Positions 24,901-28,225 of a stretch of DNA of 64,000 bases are shown piece by piece. A model generated the notes under the pieces. It searched no databases. It was not told the DNA's origin and was given only the letters and a program-made list of their open reading frames with translations. This DNA comes from Escherichia coli. GTDB taxonomy: Bacteria; Pseudomonadota; Gammaproteobacteria; Enterobacterales; Enterobacteriaceae. The position numbers were made by a program, and so were the translations under genes. The stretch lies in NCBI RefSeq assembly GCF_003790525.1, contig NZ_CP033635.1; one strand, 5' to 3'. Every line of letters begins with the position of its first letter. Within the stretch, counting starts at the first letter, position 1.

Positions 24901-25725
24901 ATGGATAAACCAAAGGCGTACTGCCGCCTGCTTCTCCCCTGCTTTCTTTTACTTTCGGCCTGTACCGTTGATATCAGCCAGCCAGACTCATCAGCCACAG
25001 CGGTAAATGCCGAGGCGAAAACATGGGCTGTTAAATTCCAGCATCAAAGCTCTTTCACCGAACAATCAATAAAAGAAATAACAGAACCAGATCTCAAACC
25101 CGGCGATTTGCTTTTCTCCTCAAGCCTTGGGGTAACCTCATTTGGTATCCGCGTATTCAGCACTTCCTCTGTGAGTCACGTTGCAATCTATTTGGGAGAT
25201 AATAACGTTGCCGAAGCGACAGGCGCTGGCGTCCAGATTGTTTCACTTAAAAAAGCCATGAAGCATAGTGATAAGCTTTTCGTCTTACGAGTCCCGGACC
25301 TTACCCCGCAACAAGCCACAGAAATCACCGCGTTCGCCAATAAAATCAAAGATAGCGGTTATAACTATCGCGGCATTGTCGAATTTATTCCATTTATGGT
25401 GACTCGCCAGATGTGCTCACTGAATCCGTTCTCCGAGGATTTTCGCCAACAGTGCGTCAGCAGCCTGGCGAAAGCGCAGTTAAGTAACGTTGGCGAAGGA
25501 GACAAAAAGTCGTGGTTTTGTTCGGAATTTGTCACTGATGCATTTGCCAAATCCGGGCATCCGCTTACGCTGGCGCAATCGGGCTGGATTAGCCCTGCCG
25601 ATCTGATGCATATGCGTAGTGGTGATGTCTCTGCATTTAAACCAGAAACGCAGTTACAGTATATTGGGCACCTGAAGCCAGGGATTTATATTAAAGCAAG
25701 TCGCTTTGTTGGACTGACTCAGTGA
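24901..25725 (+). CDS. yaeF: Putative lipoprotein YaeF, permuted papain-fold (C92/YiiX-like) peptidase, 274 aa
   Basis: ORF 24892..25725; start at MDKPKAYCRLLLPCFLLLSACTVD (lipobox LSAC); His motif SHVAIYLG precedes Cys motif WFCSEFV. Confidence 0.82.
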   Translation: MDKPKAYCRLLLPCFLLLSACTVDISQPDSSATAVNAEAKTWAVKFQHQSSFTEQSIKEITEPDLKPGDLLFSSSLGVTSFGIRVFSTSSVSHVAIYLGDNNVAEATGAGVQIVSLKKAMKHSDKLFVLRVPDLTPQQATEITAFANKIKDSGYNYRGIVEFIPFMVTRQMCSLNPFSEDFRQQCVSSLAKAQLSNVGEGDKKSWFCSEFVTDAFAKSGHPLTLAQSGWISPADLMHMRSGDVSAFKPETQLQYIGHLKPGIYIKASRFVGLTQ

Positions 25726-25750
25726 TAAAAGCCAGCCTCGTGCGCAAAAT

Positions 25751-25848
25751 GCCGGATGCGGCGTGAACGCCTTATTCGGCCTACAAAATCGTGCTAATTC
25801 AAAATATTGCATTGTATGCTTTAGGCCTGATAAGCGCAGCGCATGAGG
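25751..25848. repeat. REP/BIME element pair between convergent yaeF and nlpE
   Basis: gccggatgcggcgtgaacgccttattcggcctac (canonical REP) and aggcctgataagcgcagcgcatgagg in inverted orientation. Confidence 0.8.
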
Positions 25849-26604: not shown

Positions 26605-27027
26605 TTACTCCCGACCGCTGCGCACTTTGCCGCGCATCGCCTTCACGCTTGATTTTTGTGCCTTCGATGCCAGCCTGCGCTCTTTTGATGCGCGGGTGGG
26701 CCGCGTGGGTCGTCGGGCTTTTTGTTCTGTTGTTAATTCTTTAATCACTGCCACCAACCGGGCCAGCGCCGCTTCGCGGTTGAGCTCCTGACTACGGTAT
26801 TCCTGCGCCTTAATGACAATCACGCCATCGCTGCTGATTAAATGATGGCTGGCGGCGAGCAGGCGCTCTTTGTAATACTCTGGCAGGCTGGACGCCCGAA
26901 TGTCAAAACGCAGATGAATGGCCGTTGAGGTCTTATTAACATGCTGCCCGCCCGCGCCCTGCGCACGAATGGCGGTGATCTCAAGCTCACCATCGGGGAT
27001 AGCAACATGTCGGGAAATCACAATCAT
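26605..27027 (-). CDS. arfB: Peptidyl-tRNA hydrolase ArfB (YaeJ), alternative ribosome-rescue factor, 140 aa
   Basis: GGQ motif ([10 protein letters not shown]) and basic C-terminal tail. Confidence 0.92.
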
Positions 27028-27569: not shown

Positions 27570-27734
27570 AAGAAAACTCCTTTCGAATCAGGAGGCCATT
27601 GTAACGGAATACGTGCAGTTGCGACGCTGATATTGCAGAAATGAGTGTGGTATAGTCACCTTGCGAAACAGAGTTTATCTTCGTAGGCTTAGACTTGCAT
27701 CCACGGTTAAGTCAGAGTGCTGACAGGAGGGCAT

Positions 27735-27935
27735 GTGGAAAAATATTGTGAGTTAATACGCAAGCGGTACGCGGAAATCGCCAGCGGAGACTTAGGATAC
27801 GTTCCGGACGCGCTGGGCTGCGTTTTGAAAGTGCTGAATGAAATGGCTGCCGACGACGCCCTTTCTGAGGCTGTCAGGGAAAAAGCAGCATACGCTGCGG
27901 CAAACTTACTGGTGAGCGATTATGTCAATGAATGA
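27735..27935 (+). CDS. yaeP: Small conserved protein YaeP (UPF0253), 66 aa
   Basis: ORF 27717..27935; GTG start preceded by AGGAGG; product (M)[25 protein letters not shown]... Confidence 0.75.
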
Positions 27936-28182
27936 TACGTATCAACCAATCAATTGTGATGATTACGATAATCTTGAGCTCGCCTGCCAGCATCATTTAA
28001 TGCTGACACTTGAGCTGAAAGATGGCGAAAAATTGCAGGCGAAGGCCAGCGATTTAGTCTCCCGCAAAAATGTGGAGTATCTGGTCGTCGAGGCCGCTGG
28101 TACAACCCGCGAGCTGCGTCTGGATAAAATTACCAGCTTTAGCCACCCGGAAATCGGTACGGTGGTGGTGAGCGAGTCCTGA
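27928..28182 (+). CDS. rof: Rho-binding antiterminator Rof (YaeO), 84 aa
   Basis: ORF 27922..28182; trimmed to [23 protein letters not shown]...; 8-nt overlap with yaeP. Confidence 0.85.
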
Positions 28183-28188
28183 TTGACT

Positions 28189-28225
28189 TTCGCCGGATGC
28201 GACGTTTGATGCGTCTTATCCGGCT
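28189..28225. repeat. REP element between convergent rof and tilS
   Basis: tcgccggatgcgacgtttgatgcgtcttatccggc palindromic REP-type sequence. Confidence 0.7.

Follow-up and report, generated by a model that had tools for sequence, protein, structure and literature searches.

The yaeP–rof locus

The stretch analysed here (the window) comprises 64,000 nucleotides of the Escherichia coli contig NZ_CP033635.1 and carries two small genes, yaeP and rof, on the same strand. In window orientation the RefSeq gene order is nlpE(−), arfB(−), yaeQ(−), yaeP(+), rof(+), tilS(−), and the TGA of yaeP overlaps or directly follows an ATG of rof, which is at 27922 or at 27928. The features of the locus are:

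27627–27656, + strand: predicted σ70 promoter of the yaeP–rof operon (consensus scan and conservation), with −35 CTGATA at 27627–27632, an 18-nt spacer and extended −10 TGG-TATAGT at 27648–27656
27657–27734, + strand: 5′ leader of about 70 nt, with a conserved core at 27657–27692 and the yaeP Shine–Dalgarno (SD) sequence AGGAGG (27725–27730) at its 3′ end
27735–27935, + strand: yaeP coding sequence, GTG start in the context AUGUG, 66 aa, TGA stop at 27933–27935; small three-helix protein UPF0253/YaeP
27906–27935, + strand: rof translation-initiation region inside yaeP codons 58–67, with SD-like GGTGAG at 27911–27916, ATG(−14) at 27922–27924, ATG(−8) at 27928–27930 and the yaeP stop at 27933–27935
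27922–28182, + strand: rof coding sequence in the RefSeq annotation of this genome, 86 aa (84 aa from 27928 in the K-12 style); Sm-like Rho-binding antiterminator Rof
28192–28224, no strand assigned: palindrome of REP type, GCCGGATGCGACG / CGTCTTATCCGGC, located between rof and the convergent tilS; 3′ limit of the operon

The upstream product is a member of Pfam family PF06786 (UPF0253/YaeP; E = 7.5e-34, 116.3 bits against a cut-off of 27, residues 1–65 of 65) and of the NCBIfam equivalog NF003436 (137.4 bits, cut-off 99). The downstream product belongs to PF07073 (ROF; E = 2e-28, 98.8 bits, cut-off 27.6) and to the equivalog NF008636, the Rho-binding antiterminator (181 bits, cut-off 117, positions 1–86 of 86). 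The original prediction had named both genes and given YaeP a GTG start and 66 aa; the open reading frames and both family libraries bear this out. The 8-nt overlap that it reported holds for the K-12 start at ATG 27928 (84 aa), but becomes 14 nt with the RefSeq start at ATG 27922 (86 aa). Since rof has two in-frame ATGs at these positions, the size of the overlap is a matter of annotation.

The 801 bases around the pair are 100% identical to those of E. coli SMS-3-5. The region is present in 5424 of 5426 complete E. coli genomes and without a match in the other two; three of the roughly 5430 E. coli matches are to records labelled as plasmids. The locus is the already described E. coli yaeP–rof two-gene operon, and what follows refines a known system and describes no new kind of system. 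Said et al. 2024 (Nat Commun 15:3186, PMC11018626) depict the pair with its 8-nt overlap and its conservation in Enterobacteriaceae (their Fig. 1e). In their passages on the locus, these authors and Morita et al. (PMC9765468) describe a rof gene without a canonical SD sequence, a promoter divergent from yaeQ, REP elements that bracket the locus, and a linkage of rof to yaeP that is found in Enterobacteriaceae and not in Vibrionaceae. Morita et al. (2022, mBio), who recovered yaeP–rof from a multicopy screen, write that the overlap suggests that yaeP may modulate rof expression. Both the overlap and the idea of coupling are thus in print.

Promoter, leader and operon boundary

An alignment of 84 distinct sequences, from Enterobacteriaceae and four further genera of Enterobacterales, shows conservation of both hexamers of the promoter at 27627–27656 and of its TGn element. 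From this we infer that yaeP and rof are transcribed from a single promoter, with a start site near 27663, which corresponds to about 214197 on the minus strand of K-12. At this locus SMRT-Cappable-seq lists only the divergent yaeQ–arfB–nlpE unit (start site at K-12 position 214269).

Inside yaeP or across its start we found one weak promoter-like match, at 27720–27749 (CTGACA, a spacer of 16–18 nt and AATATT/TATTGT, 9 of 12 positions), and no promoter as conserved as the one upstream. A start just inside yaeP would allow rof to be expressed independently, leaving the overlap without consequence for expression, and Zhang et al. did use ‘rof with its own promoter’, a fragment that their text leaves undefined, to complement a rof deletion in Salmonella. 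However, the internal match overlaps the yaeP SD sequence and start codon, so that yaeP translation explains its conservation, and 1.0 ± 1.0 such matches are expected in the region by chance. It is the promoter upstream of yaeP that shows clear conservation, multicopy clones from screens always carry yaeP together with rof, and strong synonymous constraint in yaeP is confined to its last 30 nt and its initiation-proximal first five codons. We regard an independent rof promoter inside yaeP as very improbable.

The leader core at 27657–27692 (CACCTTGCGAAACAGAGTTTATCTTCGTAGGCTTAGA) is about 90–100% conserved in Enterobacteriaceae, above the level of the synonymous sites of the genes, and part of it (AGAGTTTATCTTCGTAGG) is also retained in Yersinia and Pectobacterium. 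This stretch may be an operator, a site for a small RNA or another regulatory element. The fold of the leader is not significantly more stable than expected (z-score −0.9), and Rfam returned no family match in the leader or at the gene junction, the only hits in the region being sub-threshold matches to the REP-derived naRNA4. We also considered and rejected attenuation or feedback by Rho in the leader or in yaeP: this sequence is G-rich (C/G ratio 0.46–0.88, against a window median of 1.10) and not rut-like.

The palindrome at 28192–28224 is an inverted repeat with 13-nt arms that are 85% complementary. Together with REP palindromes at 25711–25828 it gives sub-threshold Rfam matches (naRNA4/ES036) that flank the five-gene yae locus. 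REP elements on both sides agree with the ‘insulating’ REP elements in the description of the locus by Said et al. (PMC11018626).

The start of yaeP lies within ATGTG (27733–27737), a sequence found in 72 of 80 Enterobacteriaceae species, with GTGTG in five more. The out-of-frame ATG at 27733 would encode only MWKNIVS followed by a stop. The gene has been listed among the atGTG-starting genes, with no predicted ambiguity of its start (PMC9841429). INRI-seq reports a strong ‘alternative’ yaeP peak (71.8, 5/5 replicates) at an in-frame CTG at −15, K-12 position 214139, which corresponds to about 27720 of the window (PMC9825163). This CTG lies just upstream of AGGAGG, and the peak may be a displaced footprint and no real start.

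Conservation of the gene pair

A genome scan with one genome per species gave 394 matches, of which the best 80 were used; all 80 are Enterobacteriaceae, and the sample is biased towards near relatives. Serratia, Yersinia, Pectobacterium, Pantoea and Lonsdalea were each sampled singly to represent other families. In 80/80 of these closest Enterobacteriaceae species yaeP and rof adjoin and overlap, with no indels in either gene, and the same overlap and synteny are found in 5/5 species of the other Enterobacterales (Yersiniaceae, Pectobacteriaceae, Erwiniaceae). Conservation of the overlap across Enterobacteriaceae, proposed at the outset as a check, therefore holds and extends to 85/85 of the Enterobacterales species sampled, which argues against a chance overlap of reading frames.

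Outside this group the two genes part. Vibrio, Utexia and three other lineages have yaeP without a neighbouring rof, and in V. cholerae the two are on separate chromosomes according to Said et al. (PMC11018626). The linkage thus appears, from the genomes compared, to be an arrangement specific to Enterobacterales. In Vibrio alfacsensis (L085:3001–3398) the ATG that overlaps the yaeP stop (TAATG) belongs to a DUF4250 gene of 63 aa; yaeP is here again the upstream member of a tight pair of small genes, with a partner other than rof.

YaeP, a conserved protein, and its probable independence of Rof

YaeP has the three-helix fold seen in PDB 5H1N (Sf173), a crystal structure described as a dimeric helical bundle. 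This structure, its own, is the only informative fold neighbour. The dN/dS ratio of yaeP (codons 2–57) is 0.015–0.07, similar to that of rof, and indicates strong purifying selection on both genes; the protein has a reported abundance of 94.5 ppm (PMC9841429). YaeP is therefore a real, strongly conserved small protein and no mere leader peptide. It belongs to a small family (36 clusters at 50% identity among 1.84 billion representatives) and, as the original prediction stated, has no assigned function (UPF0253). In the library of representatives a 1134-aa protein, P0136, contains nine stretches that match YaeP residues 23–54 (E = 1.2e-9), perhaps as repeats of a YaeP-like helical unit, perhaps as an artefact of low complexity.

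The coupling of such a protein to a modulator of transcription termination had been called suggestive. One could imagine YaeP as a chaperone, antagonist or co-factor of Rof on Rho, with the overlap ensuring synthesis at the same time and place and in a fixed ratio. The invariance of gene order and overlap in all 85 species, the similar purifying selection on two small proteins and the dimeric bundle without a function are all compatible with such a role. The reported genetics and biochemistry speak against it. Overexpressed alone, yaeP had no effect on the colony phenotype or on terminator read-through, and rof alone was sufficient for the phenotype, in the experiments that Morita et al. describe (PMC9765468). 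By itself Rof binds Rho and inhibits it in vitro, and cryo-EM structures show the two together (Said et al., PMC11018626; PDB 8W8D, 8PTM). The occurrence of yaeP without adjacent rof in Vibrio and four further lineages, and the separate chromosomes in V. cholerae, likewise count against a partnership. An AlphaFold model of a YaeP–linker–Rof fusion with a paired alignment gave inconsistent models (pTM 0.44), in which the confidence for YaeP was lower than for YaeP alone; as a crude test without interface metrics it offers no confident complex. We find no support for a functional link. YaeP is dispensable for Rof activity and is an independent protein, and a role as functional partner of Rof is quite improbable.

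The Rof encoded here has all four of the Rho-contacting residues C10, Y13, D14 and E17 (84-aa numbering), which are invariant in 79–80 of 80 Enterobacteriaceae. These residues of the N-terminal helix are needed for Rho binding and toxicity in the work of Said et al. (PMC11018626). The sole difference from the proteins of solved structure is at codon 60 (84-aa form; 28099–28101), which specifies Thr here and Glu in K-12 (AAGETRELRL).

The rof initiation region is embedded in the end of yaeP

Across 80 species the mean synonymous-codon entropy is 0.03 bits in yaeP codons 58–66, against 0.96 bits in codons 6–57, and 100,000 random draws of nine codons yielded no value as low. The run of unvarying codons, TTA CTG GTG AGC GAT TAT GTC AAT GAA TGA, starts 16 nt ahead of the first rof ATG, so that dual coding alone cannot account for all of the constraint. 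Among E. coli genomes, too, no part of the locus varies less than the junction: 5292 of 5424 have its 81 nt at 100% identity, and just 1443 retain at least 99% identity over the surrounding 801 nt.

The conserved stretch contains a candidate ribosome-binding site. GGTGAG, five nucleotides and ATG(−14) are kept in this arrangement in 85/85 species. In the distant families the adjacent synonymous sites have drifted (CTG to TTG, AGC to AGT, GAT to GAC, GTC to GTT), while GGTGAG, the 5-nt spacer and ATG(−14) have been retained. Canonical GGAGG is absent upstream of rof. GGUGAG forms only a 5-bp match to the anti-SD sequence, and its predicted pairing with the 3′ tail of 16S rRNA (−7.6 kcal/mol, against an operon mean of −2.4) is within the top 1.6% of 10-mers in the window; AGGAGG of yaeP pairs more strongly (−10.8 kcal/mol). 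The aligned spacing that separates GGUGAG from the −14 AUG is long for a functional SD sequence, though within the range.

The invariance of the junction could partly reflect other constraints, for example on mRNA structure. A hairpin that would occlude the site, its stem holding the SD-like box and the −14 AUG and its loop the −8 AUG, appears in the minimum-free-energy fold of the E. coli sequence. Its central pairs are broken in 24–40 of 57 sequences, its pairing is no better than in shuffled controls (49/500), the RNAalifold consensus is worth −4 kcal/mol and the fold z-score is −0.7. We found no covariation in this hairpin, and its outer pairs, being invariant, are uninformative. The hairpin is unsupported, though not disproved.

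Which ATG starts rof

Reference annotations disagree on the N-terminus of Rof. K-12 MG1655 is annotated with an 84-aa protein and an 8-nt overlap (NP_414731.2), whereas RefSeq/PGAP assigns 86 aa, ATG 27922 and a 14-nt overlap in this very genome, and the NCBIfam model NF008636 has 86 positions. The older NMR structure (PDB 1SG5) used the 86-aa protein and the cryo-EM structure (PDB 8W8D) the 84-aa protein. Gene callers outside Enterobacteriaceae give an 86-aa rof in 4/5 genera, and the 87-aa call in Serratia is equivalent, with the same start.

ATG(−14) is kept in 85/85 of the Enterobacterales species sampled and ATG(−8) in 82/85. The latter is replaced by ACG in two Enterobacteriaceae loci (L010 and L019), through a silent change of yaeP Asn65 from AAT to AAC, and by ATA in Pantoea agglomerans, and in these three ATG(−14) alone can start rof. 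The comparative data thus favour the upstream AUG at 27922 as most likely the ancestral and main start of rof, in place of the K-12 start 6 nt downstream. The K-12 curators chose 84 aa deliberately, which counts against the 86-aa start.

Data on initiation come from INRI-seq, in which a synthetic pool of E. coli 5′ fragments was translated in vitro with retapamulin (PMC9825163). The rof fragment begins 30 nt upstream of the annotated ATG and hence lacks the yaeP start. It gave a peak of 8–13 at the annotated ATG (5/5 replicates) and a separately listed alternative peak of 7.9 at the in-frame ATG at −6 (4 replicates) (PMC9825163). Initiation in vitro was thus recorded at both AUGs, with a slightly higher signal at the annotated one, and peaks 6 nt apart may not be fully resolved. 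The rof initiation region is accordingly weak but autonomous in vitro, and either ATG may serve as a start. In vivo, Ribo-RET (Meydan 2019, tabulated in PMC9825163) detected neither rof start, for which low expression of the operon under those growth conditions is one possible reason; searches of N-terminomics data (the TRAINSPOTTER supplements) found no entries for rof or yaeP. We consider 27922 the AUG that probably dominates in vivo.

Translational coupling

The best account of these observations is a weak rof initiation region embedded in yaeP, partial coupling, one operon promoter and an independent YaeP, and we hold this account as a whole to be likely. A single conserved extended −10 promoter upstream of yaeP would drive both genes. 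Ribosomes would load efficiently on yaeP, which offers a strong AGGAGG and a GTG start. The signals for rof would be wholly contained in the last ∼ 30 nt of yaeP, where a moderate, non-canonical GGUGAG is followed 5 nt downstream by AUG 27922 and, in most species, 6 nt further by another AUG, 27928, which gives an 8-nt overlap and an 84-aa Rof. The site, weak as it is, could recruit ribosomes unaided and would probably also be fed by ribosomes that finish yaeP at UGA 27933–27935. Rof would then be made in small amounts, more or less in step with yaeP translation, as suits a toxic global inhibitor of Rho.

The original prediction read the overlap as implying co-translation. The arrangement is compatible with coupling, but an overlap alone does not make coupling obligatory; rof has the conserved GGUGAG, and INRI-seq records initiation on a fragment without the yaeP start. 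In a coupled pair of the termination–reinitiation type the downstream gene would be without an independent ribosome-binding site; rof has a conserved SD-like site of its own. That site is weak, and partial coupling is possible. Dependence of rof on yaeP translation is probably partial at most, and we infer a contribution of coupling in vivo.

A stricter mechanism would have rof depend entirely on termination and reinitiation. Lacking a ribosome-binding site, rof would be started at AUG 27928 by ribosomes that back up 8 nt from the yaeP UGA, and Rof would be made only with YaeP. Stop and start codons within 8 nt of each other, the presence of ATG(−8) in 82 of the 85 species, the lack of canonical GGAGG, the 84-aa K-12 annotation and the slightly higher INRI-seq peak at the annotated ATG (PMC9825163) are all as expected from such a mechanism, and Said et al. 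state that rof has no SD sequence and an 8-nt overlap with yaeP (PMC11018626). However, initiation on the INRI-seq fragment means that upstream translation is not obligatory in vitro (PMC9825163), a conserved SD-like box with a pairing energy of −7.6 kcal/mol is present after all, the three lineages without ATG(−8) retain ATG(−14), and synonymous constraint starts 16 nt before the first possible rof AUG, more than pure reinitiation would call for. Strict coupling is therefore unlikely, and we prefer the embedded weak site with partial coupling. Constructs that bear on this choice appear in the source data for Fig. 3d of Said et al., which list yaeP+rof, yaeP(delta)ATG+rof (rof-HA), rof[84aa] and rof[86aa]; their outcome is not given in the text (PMC11018626).

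Discussion

Among the overlapping gene pairs of enterobacterial operons, trpE–trpD and trpB–trpA, with their UGAUG stop/start, are classical translationally coupled examples. Like them, yaeP and rof lie on the same strand and transcript, and the downstream signals are buried in the upstream coding sequence. In contrast to the trp pairs, which overlap by 1 or 4 nt, yaeP and rof overlap by 8 or 14 nt and rof initiates independently in vitro. Within the five-gene ‘yae’ locus itself, yaeQ–arfB is another pair of small genes with overlapping stop and start codons; it differs in its canonical 4-nt ATGA overlap (27024–27027), its position on the minus strand and its membership of another transcription unit. 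Said et al. note the yaeQ–arfB overlap in the same sentence as that of yaeP–rof (PMC11018626).

Where the passages of Said et al. and Morita et al. on this locus have an 84-aa start and a rof gene without an SD sequence, we describe a GGUGAG box, a universal ATG 6 nt upstream and 30 nt without synonymous change. The case for a 14-nt overlap and an 86-aa protein, the SD-like box, the stretch without synonymous change and the conserved leader were not found stated in those passages. The true N-terminus matters somewhat for biochemistry, since this part of Rof is the Rho-binding helix region; an N-terminal His-tag abolishes Rof activity, as Said et al. report (PMC11018626). We draw attention to the conflict between the annotations of K-12 (84 aa) and RefSeq/PGAP (86 aa), in which the comparative data favour the 86-aa start.

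We speculate, tentatively and with more doubt than conviction, that the K-12 start of rof is wrong or secondary, native Rof being an 86-aa protein made from the universally conserved AUG 27922 by way of a conserved non-canonical SD sequence in yaeP, and that the highly conserved leader of about 70 nt together with yaeP translation forms a new control point that sets the level of Rof under stress. A bolder form of this idea, with YaeP as a direct modulator of Rof or Rho, has no positive evidence in its favour.

Other inhibitors of Rho offer a comparison. Psu of phage P4, YihE and Hfq are, like Rof, direct Rho antagonists whose level must stay low (PMC12360218). They are unrelated to Rof in sequence and genomic context, and the likeness concerns Rof and not the overlap. 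We know of no upstream overlapping small reading frame comparable to yaeP for Psu, YihE or Hfq.

Few cellular proteins shut down Rho, the essential terminator; Rof is among them, and its overproduction is toxic. Both Said et al. and Morita et al. raise the question of what determines the amount of Rof in the cell. An obvious candidate for such control is the overlap with yaeP, as has been pointed out in print, and the synonymous mutations identified here would separate the SD-like box, the two AUGs and yaeP translation from one another.
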